From the NCBI GenBank assembly GCA_964583345.1, contig CAZOWT010000003.1:1-41136 (forward strand): a stretch of DNA of 41,136 nt. Direction: 5' to 3'. The notes beneath the pieces were generated by a model. It ran no database searches and was not told where the DNA came from. It saw only the letters and a program-made list of their open reading frames with translations. Each line of letters begins with the position of its first letter. The stretch's first letter is position 1. Positions 933 through 41,072 of this stretch are shown here, in pieces. The DNA comes from an uncultured Clostridia bacterium. GTDB taxonomy: Bacteria > Acidobacteriota > Aminicenantia > UBA2199. Position numbers and translations under genes: made by a program.

Positions 933-2003
933 TCATTTTTTCACTCCCTTGGCCGCATACACAGGCGGGGCGAAAAGTATCCGGTTGAGCTTGTCGACAT
1001 TGGAATTAAAGGTCCGGGCCAGGGAATTTTCCGGTTCGATTTCTTCCAGCTTTTCGCCGGTCAGTTCGTCGAAAAACAGGATTTCAACCTCTGAAAATCC
1101 GCTGGTTTCCAGCAGAAACCTCAGGTATTCCGGATGAATCGGTTTCTGGTGGGTGATATCCAGGAAAAATATGCGGCTGAGGGCGAATACCGACAGGGGA
1201 TTAATGGTCTCCAGAATAATGGGACTGCCGGGCTTCAGTACCCGGTAACATTCCCGGACCAGTTGTTTGAGATAATCGCTGTGAACATGTTCGATGACTT
1301 GGGCGGAGAATATTCCGCCGCTCGATTCCTTTTCCCGTTTGAGCAGGAAGCGGAGAATGTCATCCTTAAGACAGTCCAAGCCCTTCTGTCTGGCCAAGCC
1401 GAGCATGGATTCGGATTGGTCTATTCCCCGGGCCGATTTCCCTGCCTTTTTCAGCAGATCCAGAAACTCTCCCCGGCCGCATCCCAGATCAAGGATGTCA
1501 TCCGCATGGGAAAAAAAATGGATATACCGGCTCAGGGTTTCACTGACTTTGGATTCGTCTCCCCGGAAGCGGTGTTCGAAATCCGAATACTGGAAAACCG
1601 AAAGGCGATCCTTTATCTCATCCAAGCGTTCCCGCATTTCCGGTTTTACCCCGGCCTGCAATGAGTCGGTAATCTGCTGAAGCGATGCTTCCAGGTCGGA
1701 GAACTGAGTCAGCAGGTGCCTGATATGGGAATATTCGGCTTCGAGTTTTTCGATCTTCCACTGCAGTGATTGAAAAACCAGGTTGGCATGATTGTTGGAC
1801 AGTGCATCCCATTCCCGGTCCTGAACGGTCATCCATTCGTCAAGAGCGTGGCCGAGTTCTTCCAGGAGCTCGCGAATTTCAGATTTTTTTTTTTTCAGAC
1901 GGGTTTGCTTTTGAAGATAAGACCCGATTTTTTCAAGGGCCCGGTGAAATGCCTGCTGATTTTCTTTTCTCCGGGCGGTTAACTCTTCAATTATTCTTTT
2001 CAT
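933..2003 (-). CDS. Class I SAM-dependent methyltransferase with an N-terminal coiled-coil region
   Basis: 356-aa ORF. It has the SAM-binding motif [15 protein letters not shown] followed by [10 protein letters not shown]. The N-terminal ~150 aa are charged and heptad-like. The start overlaps the tatA 3' end by 17 nt. Confidence 0.75.
1884..1895. repeat. T12 (A12 on the coding strand) homopolymer inside the methyltransferase CDS, encoding KKKK
   Basis: Direct count: 7 T at 1884-1890 plus 5 T at 1891-1895. Confidence 0.9.
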
Positions 2004-6867: not shown

Positions 6868-8241
6868 TTAAAAATGGGTTAACTGGGACTTGCCCAGCGG
6901 GAAAACGTTGAAGCCGATATCGAATAATTGGTTGTGGTCAAGGATATTTCTGCCGTCAAATAGGAAAGCCGGTTTTTTCATGGAAGCGAATATCTTCTTA
7001 TAATCGAGTTTCGAGTAGGATTCCCACTCGGTGAGGATGGCAATGGCATGGGCATTCTCAGCTGCCCGGTAGGGATCGCTTTCGAAACCGATCCGGTCAA
7101 GCCCGGCCAAATCATGACGGGCATTATCCAGGGCCTGGGGGTCGGTGATGGCAATGATGGCCCGTTCTTCGGCCAGCTTTTTGGCCACAAAAATGGCCGG
7201 AGATTCGCGGGTATCGCCGGTATTGGCCTTGAAGGCAAAACCGAAAATGGCGATTTTCTTGTCGGCGACGGTATTAAACATCTCAGTGATTATTCTTTTG
7301 ACGAACCGGCTTTTCTGGTATTCGTTCATCCAGACCACCTTCTCCCAGTAATCGGCCACCTCATTCAATCCGTACTTGCGGGCGATATAAACCAGGTTGA
7401 GAATATCTTTTTTGAAGCAGGAACCGCCGAATCCGATGCTGGCGTTCAGGAACTTTCTGCCGATCCGGGAGTCGCTGCCAACGGCATAGGAGATTTCCCC
7501 GATGTTGGCATCGGTTTTTTCGCACAGGGCGGAGATGGAATTTATTGAAGAAATACGCTGGGCCAGAAAGGCGTTGGCCACCAGTTTCGACAGTTCAGAT
7601 GACCAGAGATTGGAGGTAATGATTTTTTTTTCGGGAACCCAGTGGGCATAGATATTGATGATTTCTTGGGCCGCCTTTTTCCCTTCAATGGTCTGGTGGA
7701 AACCGACGAGCACCCGGTCCGGCTCCAGAAGATCTTTCACGGCAGAACCCTCGGACAGGAATTCCGGATTGGAGACGACCTCGAATTTGATATTCCGCTT
7801 GTTGGATGTCAGGATTCGTTCCATGGCTTCGGCGGTTCTCACCGGCAGGGTGCTTTTTTCCACGATAATTTTGTCGTTCTGTGCGGAATGGGTTATCTGC
7901 AGGGCGGTTTTTTCCCAGTATTGCAGGTCGGAAGCCATGCCGGCTCCTTCGCCGAACGACTTGGTCGGTGTATTGACCGATACGAAGATAATATCCGCTT
8001 CGCGGATGCCCTTTTCGGTATCGGTGGAAAAAAACAGGTTTTTCCCCCGAATTTTTTCAACGATCTCTTTCAGGCCGGGTTCGAATATCGGCAGGGTATC
8101 GGAATTCCACTGCCGGATTCTTTCCGGGTTGATGTCAACCACGTCCACCCGGTATTCCGGGCATTTAAGCGCCATGACCGCCATGGTAGGTCCGCCCACA
8201 TAGCCGGCGCCGATACACAGTATCCTTTTTTTATATGCCAT
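6868..8241 (-). CDS. ugd: UDP-glucose 6-dehydrogenase
   Basis: 457 aa with ILCIGAGYVGGPT (NAD binding), the catalytic-Cys motif GFGGSCFKKD and NPEFLSEG. Confidence 0.9.
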   Translation of the reverse strand: MAYKKRILCIGAGYVGGPTMAVMALKCPEYRVDVVDINPERIRQWNSDTLPIFEPGLKEIVEKIRGKNLFFSTDTEKGIREADIIFVSVNTPTKSFGEGAGMASDLQYWEKTALQITHSAQNDKIIVEKSTLPVRTAEAMERILTSNKRNIKFEVVSNPEFLSEGSAVKDLLEPDRVLVGFHQTIEGKKAAQEIINIYAHWVPEKKIITSNLWSSELSKLVANAFLAQRISSINSISALCEKTDANIGEISYAVGSDSRIGRKFLNASIGFGGSCFKKDILNLVYIARKYGLNEVADYWEKVVWMNEYQKSRFVKRIITEMFNTVADKKIAIFGFAFKANTGDTRESPAIFVAKKLAEERAIIAITDPQALDNARHDLAGLDRIGFESDPYRAAENAHAIAILTEWESYSKLDYKKIFASMKKPAFLFDGRNILDHNQLFDIGFNVFPLGKSQLTHF

Positions 8242-30717: not shown

Positions 30718-32244
30718 ATGAAGTTGAAAAACGGCGTGTTTTTTTTTCTGGTTTTTTTTTTCTTTCTTTCCCTGATGTCGGAAGAGAAGGTGCGTGAATA
30801 CCTGAAAACCGGGGATTGGTATCCCTCCGGGAAATCCGAGCTATCTGATTTAATGAATCAACTTTTTTCCCGGGCGGAAAAGGTCGATATCCCCGGCAAT
30901 ATCGTGGGAATTGTTTCCCCTCATGCCGGTTTTGCCTATTCCGGCCTCTGCGCGGCCATGGCCTACCGGCAGCTGGAAGGAAATCCTCAAATCAGCAGGG
31001 TAATCATCCTGGGAACTTCCCACCATGCCGGTTTTTACGGGGCCTGTGTCTCCGATTTCACCCATCTGGCCACTCCGCTGGGAAAACTGGAGGTGGACAG
31101 GCAGGTGGTAGACAAACTGGCAGCAGAGAGACTCTTCCGCCTGGACAACCGGGTGATGCTCTATGAGCATTCCATCGAAAACCAGCTGCCCTTTATCCAG
31201 ACGGTTTTTAAAAACCGGGATATCCGGGTGGTTCCCATCCTGTTCGGTCAGCTGGACCATAAAGATTATCCGGTCATGGCCAGGATCATCGGTAACTTTA
31301 TCGATTCCGCGACCCTGGTGGTGGCCAGCAGTGATCTCGACCATTACGGACAAAACTTCGGTTATACCCCGTTCAGCCGCAATATCAAAGCGAATCTCAC
31401 TCGGCTGGATACCGGGATGATCGAGAATATTTCCCGCCTGGATATTGATGGGTATTTCCGGTACAAGGAAAAGACGGGTATCACCATGTGCGGTTTTGTG
31501 CCGGTAGGCGTGCTGCTGTATTTATACCCGGCCCGGGGCCATGGGGCCAGGCTAACGGATTACAGGAAATCCGGCGACCGAAACCAGGATTATTCTCTCA
31601 GTGTGAGCTATGCGTCTCTGGTCATATGGCAAAAGAAACCGGGTCACGGCGGCGGCGGCAACCGGGCGGGAGAAATCGGCCGGGAATCCGGCCTCTCCGC
31701 AACCGAAAAAAAAGATCTCCTGTCCATGGCCCGGGATACGCTCCGCCTTTTTTTCCAGCAGGCGGATGCCCGGGCGGTAATAGAAAAAAAATATCGAATA
31801 TCGGACAATTTGAAAAAGGAACTCGGGGTTTTTGTGACCCTGAAAAAGAACCAACAGCTCCGGGGATGTATCGGTTCGCTTATCGGCCGGAAACCGCTCT
31901 ACCTGGAGGTCATGGATGAGGCCATCAACGCCGCGGTGCGGGATCCCCGGTTTATCCCGGTCAAACAAGAGGAACTGCCCGGACTGAAAATTGAAATATC
32001 AGTGATGACCCCGCTGCAAAAAATTACGGATTATAAACGGATTCGCCTGGGAATTGACGGTGTGATTATTAAAAGCGGCTATTCCCAGGCGGTGTATCTG
32101 CCCCAAGTTGCCACTGAAACCGGCTGGAATCTGGATGAGTTCCTGAGCCATCTGTGCGAGAAAGCCGGCCTGGCATCCCGGGCATATCGGTCCCCGGATA
32201 CCGAATTCTATGTGTTTCAGGCCCAGGTATTCGGGGAAGACTGA
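30718..32244 (+). CDS. Fusion of AmmeMemoRadiSam system protein B (MEMO1 family) and protein A (AMMECR1 domain), with an N-terminal signal or anchor
   Basis: 508 aa. The hydrophobic N-terminus is MKLKNGVFFFLVFFFFLSLMS. The Memo part carries IVSPHAGFAYSG...GTSHH...SSDLDHYG. A Gly-rich linker KKPGHGGGGNRAG follows. The AMMECR1 part carries GVFVTLKKNQQLRGCIGS...DPRF. Confidence 0.85.
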   Translation: MKLKNGVFFFLVFFFFLSLMSEEKVREYLKTGDWYPSGKSELSDLMNQLFSRAEKVDIPGNIVGIVSPHAGFAYSGLCAAMAYRQLEGNPQISRVIILGTSHHAGFYGACVSDFTHLATPLGKLEVDRQVVDKLAAERLFRLDNRVMLYEHSIENQLPFIQTVFKNRDIRVVPILFGQLDHKDYPVMARIIGNFIDSATLVVASSDLDHYGQNFGYTPFSRNIKANLTRLDTGMIENISRLDIDGYFRYKEKTGITMCGFVPVGVLLYLYPARGHGARLTDYRKSGDRNQDYSLSVSYASLVIWQKKPGHGGGGNRAGEIGRESGLSATEKKDLLSMARDTLRLFFQQADARAVIEKKYRISDNLKKELGVFVTLKKNQQLRGCIGSLIGRKPLYLEVMDEAINAAVRDPRFIPVKQEELPGLKIEISVMTPLQKITDYKRIRLGIDGVIIKSGYSQAVYLPQVATETGWNLDEFLSHLCEKAGLASRAYRSPDTEFYVFQAQVFGED

Positions 32245-32256
32245 TATGTTTAGGCC

Positions 32257-33243
32257 ATGACCATCGATAGAAGGAAATTCGGAAAAACACTCCTGGCCTG
32301 CGCGGCCGGTACGGGAACCGGCCTGTTTTTCCCCACTGTGATGCCCGGGGCCGATTCAGGAAAGAGCCAGGTTTTGATTGCCCGTTCCCAGGCGTTGATC
32401 CGGGACAATCACGGCCACCTGCGCCGGGAAAAGGTTTTTGCGGTCGTCAACCGCTTGCTGATGCGTCTGACCGGCAATCATGACCCGGCAGCGGCCTGGA
32501 AATCGCTGTTCTCTCCCGGAGAAAAGGTGGGTGTCAAACTCAGCTGCCTGCCCGGTAAGCGCCTATCCTCCAGCCCGGGCTTGGTGATGGCCATTGCCGA
32601 CGGCCTGAAATCCGCCGGGATCCGGGAGCAGGATATTTTTATCTGGGATCGGACCGACCGGGAACTGATCGAGGCCGGATTTGATATTTCCCACCGGGGG
32701 ATTAATGTGTTAGGGACCGATAATATTCGCGGGGGAGGATACTCGGACCGGGTGGAAATATCGGGGAGTGTGGGCACCTGTTTCAGCCGGATTCTGGAAG
32801 CCATGGATGCGCTGATCAGCGTTCCGGTGCTCAAGGATCATGATATTGCCGGGGTTTCCATCGGCATGAAAAACTTTTTTGGGGCCATTCACAATCCCAA
32901 TAAATTCCACCAGAATGCCTGCGATCCCTATGTGGCGGATCTCTGTCGCCACCCGTTCATCAAAAACAGACTGAGGCTGATAGTCTGCGATGCGTCCCGG
33001 GTTCAGGTTCATAACGGGCCGGCTTTTTTCCCCGGATATGCCTGGGAGTATGGCGGCATACTGGTCAGCGCCGATCCGGTAGCCCTGGATTATACCGGCT
33101 GGCAGATTATCGAGAAGAGAAGAAAGGAACTGGGGCTGAAATCACTGCGGGAATCCGGCAGGGAACCCGCCTACATATTTACGGCTGGAAAACTTGGTTT
33201 GGGCCGGGCCAACGAAAAAGCCATACGGGTGGTTGAAATATGA
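32257..33243 (+). CDS. DUF362-domain protein with a twin-arginine signal
   Basis: 328 aa. MTIDRRKFGKTLLACAAGTGTG has a Tat-type RRxFxK motif plus an h-region. The remainder (VGVKLSC...VLKDHDIAGVSIGMKNFFG) resembles DUF362, called from recalled family features. Confidence 0.65.
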   Translation: MTIDRRKFGKTLLACAAGTGTGLFFPTVMPGADSGKSQVLIARSQALIRDNHGHLRREKVFAVVNRLLMRLTGNHDPAAAWKSLFSPGEKVGVKLSCLPGKRLSSSPGLVMAIADGLKSAGIREQDIFIWDRTDRELIEAGFDISHRGINVLGTDNIRGGGYSDRVEISGSVGTCFSRILEAMDALISVPVLKDHDIAGVSIGMKNFFGAIHNPNKFHQNACDPYVADLCRHPFIKNRLRLIVCDASRVQVHNGPAFFPGYAWEYGGILVSADPVALDYTGWQIIEKRRKELGLKSLRESGREPAYIFTAGKLGLGRANEKAIRVVEI

Positions 33244-34394
33244 AAAAATCCGTTGAACAAAACCAGATTTCCCGCAGGAAGTTTGTCAAGCAGGGTGTTC
33301 TGGCCGGATTCTGCTGTCCGCTGCTGCTGGCAAATTCCCGGTTGTTCGCCTTTGATTCCGGCAATATCGATACCGGCATCCGGCCTGAAAATGCCCGGGA
33401 AGCCCGTTATTATGAGAAAATCGCGGATAAAAAGATTATTTGCCGGCTCTGCCCGCATGAATGCCGGATTGCCGACCGGGAGCGGGGCGCCTGCGGGGTG
33501 CGGGAAAATCGGGGCGGCACCTATACCACCCTGGTTTACGGCAATCCCTGTTCGGTCCACGTGGACCCGATTGAGAAAAAACCCATGTTTCACTATTACC
33601 CGGCTACCCAGGCTTTTTCCATTGCCACTGCCGGCTGCAATTTTGTCTGCCGGTTCTGTCAAAACTGGGAAATTTCCCAGAAACGGCCGGAACAGATCAA
33701 ATCCATTAACCTTTTCCCGGCCGAGGTGATCCGGTCGGCAAAAAACAATGCCTGCCGCACCGTGGCCCACACCTACACCGAACCGGTGATTTTTTTTGAA
33801 TACATGCTGGATTGCTCCATCCAGGGGAAAAAGATGGGAATTCCGAATGTGATGATCTCCAATGGCTATATCCAGGAAAAACCCATGCGGGAACTCTGCC
33901 GGTATCTGGGGGCGGTCAAGGTCGATTTGAAGGCGTTTACGGAAAAATTTTACCAGGAGCAGTGCAGCGGAACCCTGAAGCCGGTGCTCGATACCCTGCA
34001 GGTCCTTAAGGATGAGGGCATATGGTTTGAAATCGTGGTGTTGATTATTCCCACGCTCAACGACAGTAGGAAGGAGATCGATGACATGACCCGCTGGATT
34101 GTCAAAGAATTGGGGCCGGACGTTCCCGTGCATTTTTCCCGCTATTACCCGACTTTCATGCTCAAGAATATCCCTCCCACTCCCCCGAGCCTGCTGGAGA
34201 TGGCCCATAAAATTGCCCGCGACAATGGCGTGCACTATGCCTATGTCGGCAACATCCTCTCGGATGCGGCCAACACCTATTGCCACAGCTGCGGTAAATT
34301 GCTCATCGAGCGTTTGGGTTTTTCCACCGATATCGTGGGGATGAAGGGCAATACCTGCAAACATTGCGGCCAGAAAATTCCCGGGGTTTTTTAG
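33240..34394 (+). CDS. AmmeMemoRadiSam system radical SAM enzyme (PflA-like) with an N-terminal twin-arginine signal-like extension
   Basis: 384 aa. The N-terminus ISRRKFVKQGVLAGFCCPLLLANSRLFA is a near-consensus Tat signal. It is followed by CRLCPHEC...GACGVREN and the radical SAM motif CNFVCRFCQNW. It overlaps the DUF362 gene by 4 nt. Confidence 0.85.
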   Translation: MKKSVEQNQISRRKFVKQGVLAGFCCPLLLANSRLFAFDSGNIDTGIRPENAREARYYEKIADKKIICRLCPHECRIADRERGACGVRENRGGTYTTLVYGNPCSVHVDPIEKKPMFHYYPATQAFSIATAGCNFVCRFCQNWEISQKRPEQIKSINLFPAEVIRSAKNNACRTVAHTYTEPVIFFEYMLDCSIQGKKMGIPNVMISNGYIQEKPMRELCRYLGAVKVDLKAFTEKFYQEQCSGTLKPVLDTLQVLKDEGIWFEIVVLIIPTLNDSRKEIDDMTRWIVKELGPDVPVHFSRYYPTFMLKNIPPTPPSLLEMAHKIARDNGVHYAYVGNILSDAANTYCHSCGKLLIERLGFSTDIVGMKGNTCKHCGQKIPGVF

Positions 34395-34915
34395 AAAAAT
34401 CTGGTTAGTTGTTTCCGAACGAATGCCCGAATGGCACGGTAATATCGCCGGCCGTTGATATAAATCAGATAAACCTGAAAAAAGGTTTTCGTCCGAATCG
34501 GCTGATGGAAACGATCCGGCAAAAAAAACGCTTGTCCGTCCCGTTCGACCCGGGTGACCACCCCGATGATGTTTTTATCGGTTATGACGGCATCGACGAC
34601 TTGCTGCCGGTCTGCCCTGATGACAAATGAATTCTTTTTGATTTTGGCCACCCGGTGCAGTACCAGCCTGTTGTTTGCCGGATGCCGGAATGCCACCACT
34701 TCCCCCGGAGAGGGCATTATTCCCTTCAGGGGAGATATCGTAATAAAGTCATTGTTCCGAATGGCGGGAGTCATGCTGCTGCCGGTGGCCCGGAAGCGGA
34801 AAGATGCGCCTTTGTCATGAACTGCCCGCATGAGTTCCATCAGTATCCTGCCGGATATGGACAGGGACTTTTCTTTGCTTTCGGGATTATGCATTCCAGG
34901 TTTGCTTCCGGTCAC
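34391..34915 (-). CDS. S24/S26-family (signal peptidase I / LexA-like) serine peptidase; candidate leader peptidase of the RiPP-like operon
   Basis: 174 aa with the Ser motif ATGSSMTPAI, GEVVAF, and the Lys motif VLHRVAKIK. There is no N-terminal TM helix. It overlaps the upstream radical SAM gene by 4 nt. Confidence 0.7.
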   Translation of the reverse strand: MTGSKPGMHNPESKEKSLSISGRILMELMRAVHDKGASFRFRATGSSMTPAIRNNDFITISPLKGIMPSPGEVVAFRHPANNRLVLHRVAKIKKNSFVIRADRQQVVDAVITDKNIIGVVTRVERDGQAFFLPDRFHQPIRTKTFFQVYLIYINGRRYYRAIRAFVRKQLTRFF

Positions 34916-36105
34916 AGGTATGGTTTTACCTTTAAAGATATTCCAGTTTTTTTTACTCTTTCCTTCCAGTTTTTAACCGTCCAGGCATTTTCCCCGGTTT
35001 CCAGCAGTCCAAGTAGGCGCGCCTGGGCATGGGCCACCCGGCAGAGGTATTCCACCGGGGTATCCAGGGTGCCGTGTTCTGACCAGGATTTTGCCGGGCA
35101 CTGTTCGCAGAGGTTCTTTAAAAAACAGCGGGCGCAGCGTTTCAGATAATCCGGATTTTCAGCCGTGATATTTTTTATCCGGCATCGGTTTTCTTGCAGG
35201 GCTGTTTTCAAATCCTGATGTTTTAAATCAATGAGCAGGTCGGGATGTCGAAGCAGCAGGCAGGGTTGAAGCATACCGTAGGCGTCGATACTGACCGTAT
35301 GACCGGCCCCGCAATCCAGCAATTTTTTCCCGGAAGGACCCAGGAATCGAAGGCAGAATTGCCTCATATCACGGTCAAACAGCTCCCGGTCTCGAGCCAT
35401 GAATGCAACAGCTTTTTCCGGTTTCGGCCGGAGGCGTTCGATGGCCCGGTTTTTTCGGTTTGAGTCATGCCGGGCCCGCAGGTCATACAGATAGGAATAA
35501 GAGGGGGACCGGTCCATTCCGGGCAGGGAGCCGGCCCAGGATTCGAATGCTTTGATTTCGCCCTGGTTTTGCGGCAGAAGGGCACCCTTGACCACAAAAG
35601 GTATGTGGTGTTTTAACAATAGATCAATTCCCTTTCTGAATTGTTCGAATGAACCGGGAATACGTGTAACTGCCTCGACCGATTTTTTCCGCATGCCGTA
35701 AACCGTGACTTCGATCTTTTCGAGCGGAGGGATAGCTAAAAAAAGCTTTGCCAGCGATTTGGTGATCAGGGTGGCATTGGTAAACAACCGGACCCTCATT
35801 CCCAGTCGCCGGGCGAACCGGTACAATTCGGGAAAATCCGCTCTCAGCAGGGGCTCACCCCCGGTAAAACGGACCGTTAGGGCGCCCAAAGAGGCCGCCT
35901 GTTTCAGTATGGCTTTCCATTCGTCGGCGGTCAGTTCCCGGGAACGGGCTTCCGGATCATCCGGCGGACGGTTGATGTAACAATGGATGCAATTTTGGTT
36001 GCAGCGCTCGGTTAGTTCGATATCCAGGGAAGGCAGTTGCGGGTGGCCTTTTTTCCACAGAGAACGGTATCCGGGATCCCTTTTTGAGTATCCATCAGCG
36101 GCCAT
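34912..36105 (-). CDS. Radical SAM/SPASM-domain peptide maturase (paralogue 3 of 3)
   Basis: 397 aa with CNQNCIHC (CxxxCxxC), GGEPLLR, and the SPASM-type motifs CGAGHTVSIDAYGMLQPC and CARCFLKNLCEQCPA. Confidence 0.85.
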   Translation of the reverse strand: MAADGYSKRDPGYRSLWKKGHPQLPSLDIELTERCNQNCIHCYINRPPDDPEARSRELTADEWKAILKQAASLGALTVRFTGGEPLLRADFPELYRFARRLGMRVRLFTNATLITKSLAKLFLAIPPLEKIEVTVYGMRKKSVEAVTRIPGSFEQFRKGIDLLLKHHIPFVVKGALLPQNQGEIKAFESWAGSLPGMDRSPSYSYLYDLRARHDSNRKNRAIERLRPKPEKAVAFMARDRELFDRDMRQFCLRFLGPSGKKLLDCGAGHTVSIDAYGMLQPCLLLRHPDLLIDLKHQDLKTALQENRCRIKNITAENPDYLKRCARCFLKNLCEQCPAKSWSEHGTLDTPVEYLCRVAHAQARLLGLLETGENAWTVKNWKERVKKTGISLKVKPYL

Positions 36106-36406
36106 GAACCCGGGTTACCATTTTTCGCTTTACAAATTCGTTAATCAGACCCATCACATCTTTCTGAATTTCGGATAATGGTGAATCATATTCGGTTTCC
36201 AAAAACTGAATGATTTCCTCCACGGTTTTTTTTCCATCCAATTGTCCCCAGATGGCTTTACCGGTTTCGTTCAGGGTGAACAGATCTTCTTCCATATCCC
36301 CGATTCCGCTGACCAGAGGGATAAGGATCAATTCACCTTCGATCTCTCGGAACACAATTTCTTCTGAGGGTTCGAAAATATCTTTTATGTGAATGGTTGG
36401 TTTCAT
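36095..36406 (-). CDS. PqqD-family peptide chaperone (RiPP recognition element)
   Basis: 103 aa. VFREIEGELILIPL...LFTLNETGKAIWGQLDGKKTVEEIIQFLETEYD is the typical PqqD/RRE pattern. A GGAG RBS lies 7 nt upstream. Confidence 0.8.
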   Translation of the reverse strand: MKPTIHIKDIFEPSEEIVFREIEGELILIPLVSGIGDMEEDLFTLNETGKAIWGQLDGKKTVEEIIQFLETEYDSPLSEIQKDVMGLINEFVKRKMVTRVHGR

Positions 36407-36436
36407 ATTATTTCTCCATGGATCGAATATTCAATT

Positions 36437-36679
36437 TCAACTGGTTGTCCACTGGCGGCAAATCTGATAACTGTTGTTGATAAAACAGGTGCCGAAATAC
36501 CCATCCGGGCCCTGGCCCACCTGGCCGGTTTTGCAGAAAAGTAGCACCTGTTCCTCGGGCGTTTTATTGGCCAGGCTGATTAACAGCGGTTTCTCCCACC
36601 TTTTCTTTTTTATCATGCTATTTTTTATCATATTACAAAAAGGGTATTTTGTCAATAAATCCTGAAATATTGCTTTCAT
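36437..36679 (-). CDS. Candidate RiPP precursor peptide P1 (longest ORF 80 aa; the paralogue-supported start at ATG 36616 gives 59 aa)
   Basis: MIKKKRWEKPLLISLANKTPEEQVLLFCKTGQVGQGPDGYFGTCFINNSYQICRQWTTS aligns residue-for-residue with P2 and more loosely with P3. It lies directly upstream of the PqqD gene. Confidence 0.6.
   Translation of the reverse strand: MKAIFQDLLTKYPFCNMIKNSMIKKKRWEKPLLISLANKTPEEQVLLFCKTGQVGQGPDGYFGTCFINNSYQICRQWTTS
36627..36655 (-). promoter_or_regulatory. Internal sigma-70-type promoter TTGACA-N17-TATGAT in front of P1
   Basis: The minus strand reads atttaTTGACAaaataccctttttgtaaTATGATaaaaaatagcATGata. The -35 (36655-36650) is perfect, the spacer is 17 nt, and the -10 (36632-36627) matches 5 of 6. 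The ATG at 36616 is 10 nt after the -10. Confidence 0.5.
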
Positions 36680-36717
36680 TCATCTTCTTTTCCTTTTCGG
36701 GTCCTGAAAAATCCGGA

Positions 36718-36894
36718 TTAACTCTGGGTCCATTGTTTGCAGGTCGTTCCCTGGGGAATCCGGCAGGTTCCGAAGAATCCCTCGGGTCCCTGTCCGGGTA
36801 TACCGGTCTTGCAAAATAGCAAAACATGTTCCTCGGGTTTTTTGATTTCCAGGATGATTAATCCGGGTTTTGTCCACTTTTTTTGCTTTTTCAT
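36718..36894 (-). CDS. Candidate RiPP precursor peptide P2 (58 aa), not in the ORF track
   Basis: Manual reverse translation gives MKKQKKWTKPGLIILEIKKPEEHVLLFCKTGIPGQGPEGFFGTCRIPQGTTCKQWTQS with a TAA stop at 36718-36720. The ATG overlaps the TGA of the upstream radical SAM gene (ATGA at 36891-36894). Confidence 0.6.
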   Translation of the reverse strand: MKKQKKWTKPGLIILEIKKPEEHVLLFCKTGIPGQGPEGFFGTCRIPQGTTCKQWTQS

Positions 36895-38018
36895 GGTTTC
36901 GGTCCGGTTTTATCCAGGTTTTTTGCCCGGGCATGGGCCACCCGGCAAAAATAGTCCACTTTGCGGTCCAGATTCCCGGTTTCCAGGTGGGCATGGGCCG
37001 GGCACCACAGGCACAGGTTGATGATAGGACAGATTTTGCATTCAAGTGTCATGGGGTTTTCTTCGGCTCTTGTTTCGACTACCCTGGGTGTGAACCGGTT
37101 CCAGGCTTCTTCCAGATTGCCATTTCGCCAGTCATACCGGAAATCCGGATGGTTGAGCGAGGAGCAGAGGCGAAACAATCCGTCACTGCCCATGACGAAA
37201 CTTCCGTTGCCCATGCCGCAAAGAAAGAGACGGTTATCGGTTTTTTCCTCTTTGTCGGTCCGGATATATGAATGAATATTATTCTCCAGTACCTTAAATC
37301 GCTCGGGATCCGAAGTTTCCAGTTTTACGATCTCTTCCGGTGTCAGCCGCTCTGCTTGAATGTCCCGGTTCCGGTCAGGATCGCGGTCGTATCTCAGGTG
37401 CAGGAAGGGATCAAAACGGTAGTAATCCTTTGTTTTCTGGCGGCAGAAGCCGGAGATTTTCGCAAACTCGTGGAAATTGCTTCTAAGCATCATGGCCTTC
37501 AAACGGATTTTAACCTCTCCGTTGGTCAGCAACTGTAGGCCCCGCATGAATGTTTTATATGAACCCGGTGTGCGGGTTACGGCTTCATAGGTTTCTTCAG
37601 TAACCCCGTAAACCGATACCTCAATGTCTCGGGGAGGGTAGCGCCTGAACAATTTGATATGTTCTCCGGTGATCAGGTTGGCGTTGGTAAATACGGATAC
37701 CAGCAGGCCTTTCTTCTTGAGCAACAGGTAAATATCGGGAAAGTCCCGGCGCAGCAGCGGTTCGCCTCCGGTCAGCAGGCACCAGCAGGCTCCCAGGGAA
37801 ACGGCCTCATCGGCCAGTCGGTTTATCTCGGAAATGGTCAGCTCTTTTTCCCGGGCTGTGTTGTCTCCGGCCGGCAGGTTGATGTAGCAATGCCGGCAGT
37901 TGTTGTTGCAGCGGGCGGTCAATTCAAGCTCGAAGGAAATCAGGGATCTACGGGATTTGATTTTGTCCCACAGGGCAAACTCGGGAAGGGCAATGGAGCT
38001 GATATATGATTTCTTCAT
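36891..38018 (-). CDS. Radical SAM/SPASM-domain peptide maturase (paralogue 2 of 3)
   Basis: 375 aa with CNNNCRHC, GGEPLLR, and the SPASM-type motifs CGMGNGSFVMGSDGLFRLC and CKICPIINLCLWCPA. The C-terminal YFCRVAHARA parallels YLCRVAHAQA in the 397-aa paralogue. Confidence 0.85.
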   Translation of the reverse strand: MKKSYISSIALPEFALWDKIKSRRSLISFELELTARCNNNCRHCYINLPAGDNTAREKELTISEINRLADEAVSLGACWCLLTGGEPLLRRDFPDIYLLLKKKGLLVSVFTNANLITGEHIKLFRRYPPRDIEVSVYGVTEETYEAVTRTPGSYKTFMRGLQLLTNGEVKIRLKAMMLRSNFHEFAKISGFCRQKTKDYYRFDPFLHLRYDRDPDRNRDIQAERLTPEEIVKLETSDPERFKVLENNIHSYIRTDKEEKTDNRLFLCGMGNGSFVMGSDGLFRLCSSLNHPDFRYDWRNGNLEEAWNRFTPRVVETRAEENPMTLECKICPIINLCLWCPAHAHLETGNLDRKVDYFCRVAHARAKNLDKTGPKP

Positions 38019-38794
38019 GGTTTCCTAAGCAATGCGCCGCCTTTCATCTGGCCATTCGTCTTTTCAATATGCACAATGTCCATCCCGCTTCTTTCAAGCT
38101 CTGATTTAAGGGCGTCTACCGAAACAAAGGTATGGATGAATTCCCCGTTCCTCCAGAGTATGTCACCGGTTTCATATTTCAGGTTTCCAAGTGTCAAGCC
38201 GGCAAACAACTTTTTGAAAATTTCCTTCCAGGCCGAAATATTTTTCTCGGTTTTCCACTGAAATTGCAGGAGGGCATAACCACCGGGCCGGAGCATGCTT
38301 TTCACCCTTTTCAGCATTTCAACCCGCCGTTTGCGGGTGGGGATGGCGGAATACAAATCCGGTGAAAACCAGATGATATCGAAGGAATCGGGGGGGAATT
38401 CGATTCGGGATAATTCCTGGACACTGACTTCAATATTCAGCCCCTGATCGATTAAGTTATGGCGGGCACTCTCTGCCATGGCCTCAACAAAATCAACGCC
38501 GTGAACCTCAAAATCCAGGCGGGCCAGGGGAAGCGCTTCCCGGCCCCCGCCAACGCCGATTATCAATATTCTTCCTCTTTTGAAAGGAATTTTTAGTATC
38601 AGTTTTTCCTCGATTTCATTGAAACCGGAAAACAAGAGATCTCTTCGGGTGAAGGATGCAATGCTGTCTGGTTTGGCATAGGTTTGGCGGCTGAATTTCA
38701 CCAGGTCATCCGGCCTCATCAGTACCACTGCCAGGGACTGGATGAACTTTCCCAGTGAAATGAACCGTTTTGCACATCGGATTCTAAGATTCAT
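38015..38794 (-). CDS. Class I SAM-dependent methyltransferase
   Basis: 259 aa with the motif I sequence ILIIGVGGGREALPLA, then FEVHGVDF and LRPGGYALL. It overlaps both neighbours by 4 nt. Confidence 0.8.
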   Translation of the reverse strand: MNLRIRCAKRFISLGKFIQSLAVVLMRPDDLVKFSRQTYAKPDSIASFTRRDLLFSGFNEIEEKLILKIPFKRGRILIIGVGGGREALPLARLDFEVHGVDFVEAMAESARHNLIDQGLNIEVSVQELSRIEFPPDSFDIIWFSPDLYSAIPTRKRRVEMLKRVKSMLRPGGYALLQFQWKTEKNISAWKEIFKKLFAGLTLGNLKYETGDILWRNGEFIHTFVSVDALKSELERSGMDIVHIEKTNGQMKGGALLRKP

Positions 38795-40779
38795 AGATGT
38801 CCTGCTGTCAATTTATTTAAAAGATCCTTAACCTCATTGCCCTTATTAAAATATAAAAAATAACAGGGGACTTCAATAACGATTTTTTCCAGCAGATCCA
38901 GGCTTTTCTGCCACCAATCCCCGGTGCCGAGGGGTTTGATTAAAAAAGACAGCAGTTTGCCGATGATGATCTGTTTATCTTGAATTTGTTCCAGCCGGTT
39001 ATCCGGGGATTTTTCCAGAAAAAGCATGGCTTTCAGAGGTGCAGATGAAGGTGAAACCTCAGGAATGTCCCCGTGGCTCCAGGTCCCATGAATTTTAAAT
39101 CCCTCCGGCCAGTTTCTGACAATATTCCGGTCATCACACAGAATTTCCGTTTCATCCTGAAGAATCCGGGTCAGGGTGGATTTCCCGGCCCCCGAATGAC
39201 CCATAAGAAGAAAGCCTGAACCCTGGTGAATGACACCGCTGGAGTGGAAATAACAACCTTCATGGTATGAAAGAACCTGAGCGATCAACATCTGGTCGGA
39301 AGGCATCAGGGATAACGATGTCACGTCTCCTTTGATAAAGTATTTTTTCTTGGTATCATCATTATAAAGCCGGTTGAAGCGGTAATCCCGGCTGAAGATC
39401 CCGACCTGGGGATAGGAGGTTCTCCGGCCTCCTGAACCGATACAGAAATAAACCCAGTTGTTTCGATGTTTGAAAATTTTCCAGGGTGGCTGGTGAAACA
39501 CCGGTTGTCCCATTTTATTCATTTGAAGGGGTGGATCGGAAAAAAAATGCTGGATGATGGTGTTGTTGTCTCCCGGACCGTCCACCTCAAACGCCTTGAA
39601 TTTGGGATGAAAGGTATTTTTCCGAATAGGCAGTTCCGATTCCAATTGAATGGTAATATTGGCAATTTCATAAAATCGCCGGTGATTCTTTTCCCAGCTT
39701 TTTTTTAATTTCTGTTTTTCCCGGGTGATATCGCAAAGATATTCGATTTTTTGATGATAATTACTGTGCTCCAGGTAGCGATATGCCGGGCAACTGGAAC
39801 AGCTATCGGCAATATCGCAGGAAAAGCAATCCCCGGTTTGAAGCGGCTGGAGGTTGAACTGGTTTTTCAGGGAAGGAATAAATGTATTCCAGATGGTCTC
39901 AAAGGAATTTTTTTTCAGACTTTTTCTGGTAGAGGAGTCCTTGGCAAAAGCACAGAAACTCAAATCACCATAGGGATCGACATGAAATTCCTGCCGGGTC
40001 CGAATGCAGGAAGCAAACACTCCGGTATCGGACATGTTTCCTTCCACATCAATCGATTCTTCACGATTTGCAGGGAGGTGTGAAAAGGGAGGACTAAAAT
40101 CAAGCTCAGCCGCCTGGGCAGGAAGGAGCCGCTGGCCTATAATTTCACGGTTCTTTTTCAAGTTATTTTCGGCAGACAGGTACAGCCAGGAGGCTCCGTA
40201 GCGCCAGGAGGGTGTCAGCGATTCTGCCAGCCGGACCATTTCTGAAAGGTGAATAATATTATCTTTCATGGGCACAATCTGCATTGTGAAATTGGTTCCG
40301 GCTTCTTTCAGGTAGGCGATTCCCTGCATCAGCAATTGAAAGGATCCAGGAGTCCGGGTGATATGGTCATGGGTTTTTTCATCGGCACCGTACAGGGCAA
40401 CCAGCTTGATTCCCTCTCTCTTCAAAAGCCGGGCAATCGAAGGGGTTATCAGGGTGCCATTGGTATTCAGTGTGTAACGATTGGTTTTTCTGGTTATATA
40501 ATCGAAAATTTCAGGAAAATCAGCTCTCAATAGCGGTTCACCTCCGGAAATGTACCACTGGCGGCAGCCCATTCTTCTGGCTTCATCCACCAGTTTTTTA
40601 ATTTCATCAATCTGGAGTTCAGCCTTTATTTTTTTCGAAGCCGGTGGTATTCTCACCCAGCAGTGGTGGCAGTTCAGGTTGCAGCGGTAGGTGAGGTCCA
40701 GCGATCCCTTTCGCGGGATGCGGAGAGAACTGCAGGGCCTGATAGTTGTAAGATAATCATTCATTTCAGCATTGATCAT
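38791..40779 (-). CDS. Radical SAM/SPASM-domain maturase (paralogue 1 of 3) fused to a C-terminal HPr-kinase-like P-loop domain
   Basis: 662 aa. The N-terminal half carries CNLNCHHC, GGEPLLR, CIRTRQEFHVDPYGDLSFC and CFSCDIADSCSSCPA. The C-terminal ~300 aa contain FHSSGVIHQGSGFLLMGHSGAGKSTLTRILQDETEILCDDRNIV, which mirrors the HprK catalytic core (H-G-V...G-x-G-V-L-I-x-G-x-S-G-x-G-K-S...D-D). Confidence 0.8.
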   Translation of the reverse strand: MINAEMNDYLTTIRPCSSLRIPRKGSLDLTYRCNLNCHHCWVRIPPASKKIKAELQIDEIKKLVDEARRMGCRQWYISGGEPLLRADFPEIFDYITRKTNRYTLNTNGTLITPSIARLLKREGIKLVALYGADEKTHDHITRTPGSFQLLMQGIAYLKEAGTNFTMQIVPMKDNIIHLSEMVRLAESLTPSWRYGASWLYLSAENNLKKNREIIGQRLLPAQAAELDFSPPFSHLPANREESIDVEGNMSDTGVFASCIRTRQEFHVDPYGDLSFCAFAKDSSTRKSLKKNSFETIWNTFIPSLKNQFNLQPLQTGDCFSCDIADSCSSCPAYRYLEHSNYHQKIEYLCDITREKQKLKKSWEKNHRRFYEIANITIQLESELPIRKNTFHPKFKAFEVDGPGDNNTIIQHFFSDPPLQMNKMGQPVFHQPPWKIFKHRNNWVYFCIGSGGRRTSYPQVGIFSRDYRFNRLYNDDTKKKYFIKGDVTSLSLMPSDQMLIAQVLSYHEGCYFHSSGVIHQGSGFLLMGHSGAGKSTLTRILQDETEILCDDRNIVRNWPEGFKIHGTWSHGDIPEVSPSSAPLKAMLFLEKSPDNRLEQIQDKQIIIGKLLSFLIKPLGTGDWWQKSLDLLEKIVIEVPCYFLYFNKGNEVKDLLNKLTAGHL

Positions 40780-40841
40780 ATTTCAATTTTAAATCCTTTT
40801 CACCCGCCGATTTTCAAAAACCTGCCTGAAAAAATATTCGC

Positions 40842-41072
40842 TCATGAAGTATTATTCTGCGCCTGACAGGCGGCGTGGCATGCGCTCGACTGCCTACATT
40901 GATTGAAGGCCGAGTTCGGACCTGTAAAATTTTGGGTTTTACAATTCAGCGTCAGCACCTCGTCGGGATTGCTCCGGCATAATATTACCAGCTGGGGCCT
41001 TTCCCAGAACTTTTTCTTGTCATATTTTTTTGCTGTATCCATTTTTTTCATTTCTTTTTCAGTTTCCTTCAT
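40842..41072 (-). CDS. Candidate RiPP precursor peptide P3 (76 aa from the first ATG; the start is uncertain, with alternative Met codons at residues 8 and 11)
   Basis: MKETEKEMKKMDTAKKYDKKKFWERPQLVILCRSNPDEVLTLNCKTQNFTGPNSAFNQCRQSSACHAACQAQNNTS shares W-x-[KR]-P-x-L, P-[DE]-E-x-L, CKT, GP, spaced Cys and the C-terminal TS with P1 and P2. It is the first gene of the operon. Confidence 0.55.
   Translation of the reverse strand: MKETEKEMKKMDTAKKYDKKKFWERPQLVILCRSNPDEVLTLNCKTQNFTGPNSAFNQCRQSSACHAACQAQNNTS

Follow-up and report, generated by a model that had tools for sequence, protein, structure and literature searches.

A missed small gene next to a radical SAM enzyme reveals a large unnamed family of precursor-like peptides

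Introduction

Small genes encoding the precursors of RiPPs (peptides that are made by the ribosome and modified after translation) are often missed or mis-called. The locus considered here raises the question of whether such a gene has been passed over and, if it is real, to what kind of peptide system it belongs. It lies in a stretch of 41,136 nucleotides (nt) from an uncultured Clostridia bacterium (GTDB lineage Bacteria; Acidobacteriota; Aminicenantia; UBA2199; GenBank assembly GCA_964583345.1, contig CAZOWT010000003.1, positions 1 to 41,136), and this whole stretch is referred to as the window. An original prediction, made from the DNA letters and a list of open reading frames (ORFs), proposed that a hidden frame of 58 codons, here called P2, is a missed gene that is paralogous to the neighboring ORF, P1, and is tied to radical S-adenosylmethionine (SAM) maturases. 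The codon test and the profile search described below agree with this proposal. One pipeline had placed an out-of-frame ORF over P2. Taken alone, P2 would be an ordinary missed small gene; the interest of the locus lies in the large, unnamed and stereotyped family of precursors that it reveals. The gene cassette in which P2 is embedded joins three radical SAM enzymes and a kinase-fold domain and is without a characterized member.

Results

P2 is a coding gene

Re-translation of the P2 frame gives MKKQKKWTKPGLIILEIKKPEEHVLLFCKTGIPGQGPEGFFGTCRIPQGTTCKQWTQS, which begins with ATG and matches exactly the translation originally proposed. As had been noticed, P2 is missing from the ORF track of the window, from which it was omitted because its 58 amino acids (aa) fall short of the 60-aa cut-off. 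Upstream of the ATG, the frame is closed by a stop only five codons away, and it contains no alternative in-frame start. By itself, an open frame as short as 58 codons carries no significance, because dozens of spurious ORFs of that size are present in the window; the similarity of P2 to related peptides is significant.

Compared with the last 59 aa of P1, P2 is identical at 36 of 58 aa (62%) and at 110 of 174 nt; the similarity that had been noted is thus real, and the figure of about one half given for it was too low. The differences are distributed over codon positions 1, 2 and 3 as 13, 17 and 34, respectively, and the proportions of synonymous (pS) and non-synonymous (pN) differences are 0.82 and 0.25 (Fisher p ~2e-9, from rounded Nei-Gojobori counts), that is, the codon-level comparison of P1 and P2 suggested with the original prediction reveals purifying selection. 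The same test was extended to five genes of the subfamily, namely P2, P1, P0004 (from locus L001, Logan SRR26074164), P0005 (L099) and P0007 (L098). The pS/pN values of P2 are 0.74/0.24 against P0004, 0.86/0.30 against P0005 and 0.87/0.36 against P0007, and in all ten pairwise comparisons of the five genes the synonymous sites are saturated (pS 0.74-0.95) and the non-synonymous sites constrained (pN 0.24-0.40). The original prediction had also considered that homologous loci might lack an open frame at this place; the frame stays open in P0004, P0005 and P0007, and the orthologous peptide gene of L001 holds stops in both other forward-strand frames.

A profile search of the 1160 six-frame ORFs of at least 20 aa in the window points in the same direction. 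The scoring profile was built from peptides of other phyla and foreign genomes only, with the window peptides left out, although these foreign peptides had themselves first been collected by means of a profile that started from the peptides of the window. P2 (E=1.9e-15, 52.9 bits), P1 and a third peptide, P3, were the only matches (Table 1), and the next best ORF had E=1.3. By these comparisons of related sequences, P2 is a real coding gene of a precursor-like family.

P2 is joined to the operon as the enzyme genes are

As originally reported, the ATG of P2 shares bases with the TGA of the gene for a 375-aa radical SAM enzyme (rSAM375), the two genes overlapping by the four bases ATGA; the sequence at the junction is ...AAACCATGAAAAAG. 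A four-base overlap is also present at three gene pairs of the same operon, those of the 662-aa fusion protein and the methyltransferase, of the methyltransferase and rSAM375, and of a 397-aa radical SAM enzyme (rSAM397) and the peptidase, which brings the number of such junctions to four, the rSAM375-P2 junction included; the genes for the PqqD-family protein and rSAM397 overlap by 11 bases. P2 is thus attached to the operon by the kind of junction that links the enzyme genes, and the ATGA overlap suggests translational coupling of P2 to rSAM375.

The placement of a precursor gene downstream of its maturase, which had been regarded as unusual, turned out to be a recurrent feature of the family. 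In GTDB genomes, the search with rSAM375 gave 208 relatives that are 54-62% identical to it; 80 related loci of many phyla were kept from this search, and in at least 17 of these 80 loci a family peptide is encoded 12-345 nt past the stop of the rSAM375 ortholog (for example, +12 in L030, +19 in L081, +20 in L034 and +33 in L097). The four-base overlap itself is the only part of the arrangement that is local to this window.

A large unnamed family of stereotyped peptides

When 1.84 billion cluster representatives were searched exhaustively with HMMER, the peptide profile matched 1896 of them at E<=1e-3, nearly all 50-75 aa long; the family size of about 1,900 is a count of clusters at 50% identity. 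A six-frame profile scan of the 80 related loci yielded 85 peptide matches in 54 loci. The reach of the family became apparent from this exhaustive search and from the scan of loci anchored on radical SAM genes; a word-indexed search for proteins similar to P1, P2 and P3 returned 4 only and badly underestimated the size of the family. For the ten top representatives that were looked up, all sources give "hypothetical protein" or no name. There was no family match for P1, P2 and P3 in NCBIfam and Pfam, nor for seven foreign family peptides in NCBIfam, the only Pfam match of the window peptides being DUF333 with E=0.048, below threshold. Literature searches in an incomplete collection found no paper that describes the peptide family or the cassette.

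The family shares the leader M-K-K-K-x-W-x-K-P-x-L-x-V-L-x-R-G-x-P-E-E-x-V-L-x-x-C-K, in which P and C are each conserved at 98%, W and E at 97% and K at 93%. The Cys of the CK motif is separated from the next Cys by 14-16 residues in 135 of 184 family peptides, one or two further Cys follow in the core, and exactly six residues follow the last Cys in 155 of the 184 (C-x5-[ST]-COOH). Ser or Thr terminates 149 of the 151 top representatives and 68 of 72 peptides from GTDB loci, against a background of ~13%. All these features are readable in P2: its leader (residues ~1-27, MKKQKKWTKPGLIILEIKKPEEHVLLF) has W7, P10, L12, L15, P20-E21-E22 and V24-L25 and is followed by the CK motif (C28-K29), the gap between C28 and the first core Cys, C44, is 15 residues, and the second core Cys, C52, is followed by KQWTQ and the terminal S58. 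The gene also lies in the corresponding genomic context, within a cassette of three radical SAM enzymes, a PqqD-family protein, a peptidase and a domain similar to ScmC.

With three Cys, P2 falls into the second commonest class of the family, the mode being four. Together with P1, P0004, P0005, P0006 and P0007 it forms a subgroup of peptides that have three Cys and end in W-T-x-S, and the closest peptide relative comes from a metagenome-assembled genome (MAG) of Desulfatiglandales. The genomic contexts of the two nearest relatives, P0005 and P0007, are uninformative, one of the contigs being short and the other peptide an orphan. Two leader-like units within one ORF were seen in P0008 (180 aa), in P0009 (90 aa) and at 7013..7321 of L050; these may be tandem-fused precursors, or adjacent genes merged by read-through or mis-calling.

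Paralogous precursors in the window and a syntenic locus

The real start of P1 is probably Met22 (ATG at 36616), which would give a peptide of 59 aa colinear with P2, and the 80-aa reading would then be too long. The promoter-like site listed in Table 1 falls inside the N-terminal extension of the 80-aa reading and ends 10 nt before Met22. In L001, a similar site, TTGAAA-17-TATAAT (1630..1675, read by eye), ends 6 nt before the ATG of the peptide gene; the sites being so near the starts of P1 and of the L001 peptide, leaderless or near-leaderless precursor mRNAs are suggested. The third paralog, P3, which was absent from the original prediction, heads the operon upstream of the gene for the 662-aa fusion protein. 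It has four core Cys and a fifth Cys in the leader, a longer N-terminal extension than P2 and the C-terminal end NNTS.

P1 lies directly upstream of the PqqD-family gene, in the same position as the single peptide gene (P0004) of L001. Positions 681..2689 of L001 are syntenic with 34391..41072 of the window, with 78% nt identity in the flanking radical SAM gene, and both loci have the same flanks, consisting of EamA and AmmeMemoRadiSam genes. Between these flanks, L001 encodes only a stand-alone ScmC-like protein, the one peptide, a PqqD-family protein and a peptidase.

The gene cassette

The minus-strand operon of the window spans 34391..41072 and encodes, besides the three peptides, three radical SAM enzymes, a PqqD-family protein presumed to act as RiPP recognition element (RRE), a presumed leader peptidase and an accessory methyltransferase (Table 1).

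Table 1. Features of the peptide cluster in the window
Feature	Position	Strand	Basis
P3, third precursor paralog, 76 aa	40842..41072	minus	profile E=1.5e-15
662-aa fusion protein, radical SAM and ScmC-like domain	38791..40779	minus	domain searches, predicted fold
SAM-dependent methyltransferase, accessory	38015..38794	minus	domain searches; in 6/80 related loci
rSAM375, 375-aa radical SAM enzyme, SPASM-type motif (CNNNCRHC; ECKICPIINLCLWC)	36891..38018	minus	
P2, precursor peptide, 58 aa	36718..36894	minus	ATG start, codon test, profile match
Promoter-like site, TTGACA-17-TATGAT, 11/12 consensus matches	36627..36655	minus	consensus match only
P1, paralogous precursor	36437..36679	minus	80 aa from first ATG; profile E=3.3e-14
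PqqD-family protein, presumed leader-binding RRE	36095..36406	minus	PF05402, 57.0 bits against a cut-off of 23.4
rSAM397, 397-aa radical SAM enzyme, SPASM-type motif (CNQNCIHC; RCARCFLKNLCEQC)	34912..36105	minus	
S24/S26-type peptidase, Sec11/archaeal signal-peptidase-like, presumed leader peptidase	34391..34915	minus	

In all three radical SAM enzymes, the motif CX3CX2C and a SPASM-type CX2CX5CX2C can be read in the translation, the N-terminal part of the 662-aa protein consisting of a radical SAM domain (CNLNCHHC) and such a SPASM-type Cys motif (CX2CX5CX2C). The Pfam SPASM model gives 18.5 bits in the 662-aa protein, against a cut-off of 21.5, and no match in the other two enzymes. When the three were compared with curated maturase models, every family remained far below its cut-off, and the nearest solved structures are those of MoaA, BlsE and SkfB (E 1e-8 to 2e-7). 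The peptidase passes PF00717 (30.8 bits against 23.3) and stays below TIGR02228 (38.9 against 51.85); it has the motifs GSSMTP and LHRV, for which the variants at related loci hold to GxSMxP and xHR[VIL], the Ser/His arrangement of Sec11/archaeal-type signal peptidases, and it has no obvious N-terminal membrane anchor. The methyltransferase matches weakly a model of daptide-type RiPP methyltransferases (31 bits against a cut-off of 175). Rfam gave no match in the window at the gathering threshold.

The peptide family occurs in anaerobic bacteria and archaea. Its cassette is present in methanogenic archaea as well as in Omnitrophota, Thermodesulfobacteriota, Chloroflexota, Planctomycetota and NC10, with the relatives of rSAM375 including proteins of Methanothrix, Methanoregula, Methanolinea and others. 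The components of the cassette and the peptides co-occur: of the 80 loci, 70 encode the PqqD-family protein, 63 an rSAM397-like enzyme, 62 the peptidase, 59 the ScmC-like domain and 54 family peptides. The ScmC-like domain is usually fused to the third radical SAM enzyme (49 loci), and the genes are nearly always on the same strand. The usual order is peptide, radical SAM-ScmC fusion, rSAM397-like enzyme, PqqD-family protein, peptidase and rSAM375-like enzyme, optionally followed by further peptides; the order in the window is rearranged. Several precursor copies per locus are the norm in the family.

The cluster is adjoined in the window by an AmmeMemoRadiSam-like set on the plus strand (30718..34394), which comprises a Memo-AMMECR1 fusion, a DUF362 protein and a 384-aa radical SAM protein. 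This set is syntenic in L001 and in L010, a contig of the Joint Genome Institute (JGI), and is probably unrelated to the peptide cluster.

The ScmC-like domain has a kinase-like fold

The C-terminal 307 aa of the 662-aa protein (residues 356-662) form the ScmC-like domain, with the Walker A motif GHSGAGKST (residues 527-535, with its Lys at 533, as read from the translation) and the motif ILCDDR. Its scores are all below cut-off (32.7 bits with ScmC, 27.8 bits with HprK-related kinase B, whose cut-off is 200, and 14.7 bits with HPr kinase), and a search of PDB sequences with the domain returned generic P-loop matches only. PF27840 (ScmC) is recorded for the 662-aa proteins of the same population on contigs L009, L010, L011, L013 and L014, as well as for every homolog listed for the C-terminal domain. 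An AlphaFold2 model of the domain, obtained from a 42-sequence alignment, has a mean predicted local distance difference test score (pLDDT) of 92 and a predicted template modeling score (pTM) of 0.89. All 41 Foldseek matches to this model in the PDB at E<=1e-3 are ATP-dependent phosphoenolpyruvate carboxykinases (PEPCK) or HPr kinases/phosphorylases, with modest TM-scores of ~0.5 when normalized to the HprK catalytic domain. On the evidence of the predicted structure, the domain has the HPr-kinase/PEPCK fold.

Of the 60 foreign ScmC-like copies (from L018-L097) that align in this region, nearly all retain GHSxAGK[ST]T with ILCDDR after it, and across the Walker A/ILCDDR region the five JGI copies of the same population do not differ from the window. 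In one copy, from an uncultured Chlorobiaceae MAG (L090, 4942..5868), Walker A (GSEADQTS in place of GHSEAGKST) and the CDDR motif are both lost; no family peptide was detected at the L090 locus.

Discussion

Proposed maturation of P2

The coding pattern, conserved architecture and context of P2 make it very probable that the gene is translated as a genuine RiPP precursor, one of three operon paralogs, and we propose that its product is modified along the following lines. Expression of P2 would depend on ribosomes that re-initiate at ATGA, where the rSAM375 gene ends, and that of P1 on its own promoter-like site. The PqqD-type protein would bind the leader of ~27 residues (KKWxKPxLxxL....PEExVL) and hand the peptide over to the enzymes. 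Of these, the three radical SAM paralogs would act on the invariant C28, C44 and C52, and by analogy they would most likely install thioether cross-links like those of sactipeptides or ranthipeptides. The HPr-kinase-fold domain of the 662-aa protein may target the C-terminal Ser58, as lasso-peptide kinases do, and the Sec11-like Ser/His peptidase would take off the leader.

HPr-kinase homologs in lasso peptide clusters transfer phosphate to the C-terminal Ser side chain of the precursor and require little other sequence recognition (PMC8498205). Because the near-invariant C-terminal Ser/Thr coincides with an HPr-kinase-fold domain and a PqqD-type partner, phosphorylation of Ser58 is the best available hypothesis for the action of this domain, which by analogy would act on the C-terminal Ser. 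As for the product, the hypervariable cores and the frequent multi-copy loci argue against the role of a cofactor and suggest a peptide for competition or signaling.

A more far-reaching version, which we hold only tentatively and consider unlikely in its full form, is a new RiPP class, defined by P2 and its roughly 1,900 relatives, in which the kinase-fold domain activates by phosphorylation the C-terminal Ser/Thr, a ring is formed to the Cys six residues upstream and the other radical SAM enzymes cross-link the rest. The ring might arise by elimination and Michael addition (lanthionine-like, without LanB, LanM or LanKC) or as a radical SAM thioether, and the two further SPASM-type radical SAM paralogs would install the remaining Cys cross-links. 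To our knowledge, the combination of kinase and radical SAM chemistry on one scaffold has not been described so far.

Alternative explanations

Several observations weigh against P2 being a precursor that is modified in this manner. There is no recognizable Shine-Dalgarno sequence for P2; the overlapping enzyme genes of the operon are likewise without a clear one, and several stand-alone genes of the window have one. No exporter is encoded inside the window cluster. At L001, all three peptide-modifying radical SAM genes are absent, and the peptide still has three Cys and a C-terminal Ser; either radical SAM modification is dispensable there or the cluster is decaying. The profile with which the family members were collected ended in Ser and carries a slight bias to Ser-ending peptides. 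The link between the kinase domain and the Ser draws on analogy and co-occurrence, and the Ser could instead serve radical SAM chemistry. Finally, the JGI contigs that carry P2 (L009, L010 and L011) have 99.9% nt identity to the window and, coming from the same population, are not independent evidence, and on L010 (14246..14440) the gene caller took an out-of-frame ORF of 64 aa and not P2. The whole set of JGI contigs L009-L017 was considered as independent evidence and rejected on the same ground, identity of 99.9% within one population.

The alternative role of the terminal residue deserves the closest consideration. P2 could be a genuine precursor in which the C-terminal Ser and the C-x5-S spacing serve radical SAM chemistry and not phosphorylation, possibly through a reaction on the terminal residue similar to that of MftC or through a thioether between Cys and the C-terminal residue; in that case, the domain with the HPr-kinase fold would serve as a module for peptide binding or chaperoning, either non-catalytic or ATP-dependent. 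The mycofactocin maturase acts on the C-terminal residue of its substrate, and residues 27-335 of the 662-aa protein, within its radical SAM domain, align to positions 16-318 of the 339 in the model of this maturase with 102 bits, a score that is nevertheless far under the MftC cut-off of 265. The fixed distance of six residues from the last Cys suggests a ring, and the L090 homolog shows that the domain can be kept without Walker A, but the presence of the Walker A and DD motifs in nearly all 60 foreign copies argues for catalysis, and at L001 a kinase-like protein and a peptide ending in Ser persist although the locus has no radical SAM enzyme for them. On balance, this explanation appears doubtful, although it has to be taken seriously.

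That P2 is a decaying, non-functional duplicate of P1, still open by chance and transcribed with the operon without being a substrate, is far less plausible. The synonymous sites between P2 and P1 are saturated and pN is nonetheless 0.25, whereas in a pseudogene of such an age pN would be near pS and stops or frameshifts would be present. P2 also retains all features that define the family, from W7, P10, PEE and CK to the spacing of its Cys and the terminal C-x5-S, and its N-terminus is nearer the family consensus (MKKKKW) than that of the 80-aa reading of P1. It is true that P2 has neither a promoter nor a Shine-Dalgarno sequence of its own, that the JGI gene caller passed over it on L010 and that the syntenic L001 makes do with one peptide gene, but multiple precursors per locus are usual in the family. 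The remaining explanation, that the true gene is the 64-aa ORF called on L010, equivalent to 36633..36827 of the window minus strand, and that P2 is an artefact, can practically be dismissed: this ORF spans the 3' end of P2, the intergenic spacer and the 5' end of P1, the corresponding frames of L001 hold stops, it has no family signal in contrast to the P2 frame, the distribution of differences over codon positions fits the P2 frame, and P2 is called instead on L009 (P0002, a near-identical protein with I32L) and, in truncated form, on L011, all of which makes the L010 call appear to be a mis-annotation.

Comparison with known systems

We take the closest named system to be the SynChlorMet (SCM) cassette of NCBIfam/TIGRFAMs (Haft), which is known from bioinformatics only. 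Its models are ScmC (TIGR04249), the PqqD-related ScmD (TIGR04248) and the radical SAM/SPASM proteins ScmE (TIGR04250) and ScmF (TIGR04251). Both systems combine an ScmC-type HPr-kinase-like protein and a PqqD-like protein with several radical SAM enzymes that have SPASM-type Cys motifs, both are scattered over syntrophs, Chlorobi-type bacteria and methanogens, and some of the related loci have the SCM layout of a stand-alone ScmC and two radical SAM enzymes. The window, however, has three radical SAM enzymes, one of them fused to ScmC, and a Sec11-like peptidase, and NCBIfam and Pfam scans found no curated model for its precursor. The bit scores of the window proteins are 32.7 against a cut-off of 125 for ScmC, 27.8 against 100 for ScmD, at best 91 against 400 for ScmE and at best 92.7 against 400 for ScmF, and the Chlorobiaceae homologs of the cassette also miss the curated cut-offs. 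Assignment of the cluster to the curated SCM cassette was rejected, all four cut-offs being missed widely, and because of this failure the cluster is regarded as a sister system of SCM and not as a member.

Phosphorylated lasso peptides of the paeninodin type, in which a Ser-terminated precursor is accompanied by an HPr-kinase homolog and a B1 protein similar to PqqD, are similar in that an HPr-kinase-fold protein and a PqqD-type RRE are found beside Ser-ending precursors, the HPr-kinase homology of the window domain being apparent at the level of the fold only. In contrast to these systems, no ORF of the cluster encodes a lasso cyclase (asparagine-synthetase-like C protein) or a B2 protease, the PadeA model does not match the family peptides (E 0.3-0.6), and the window has SPASM-motif radical SAM enzymes as maturases and a Cys-rich peptide core.

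Sactipeptides and ranthipeptides are RiPPs with thioethers from Cys to carbon that are installed by radical SAM/SPASM enzymes with an RRE, such as AlbA, SkfB, StsB and PapB. The present system shares with them a leader-core precursor with several conserved Cys, an apparently RRE-dependent logic and, as far as can be read from the translations, the motifs CX3CX2C and CX2CX5CX2C, and SkfB is among the nearest solved structures of the window enzymes. It differs from them in the scores of its radical SAM enzymes, 45-84 bits against cut-offs of 340-850 for AlbA, StsB and PapB, in the presumed use of three distinct radical SAM paralogs for one peptide, and in the presence of a stand-alone PqqD-family protein, a kinase-fold domain, a Sec11-like peptidase and the invariant C-x5-Ser terminus.

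Judged by gene content and model scores, the system thus resembles a sactipeptide/ranthipeptide pathway combined with a paeninodin-type kinase, yet by these criteria it is placed in neither class. If phosphorylation of the C-terminal Ser is true, it would carry the tailoring of peptides by kinases beyond the lasso peptides, and the peptide profile gives candidate substrates for SPASM-type radical SAM enzymes and ScmC-type proteins without an assigned function.

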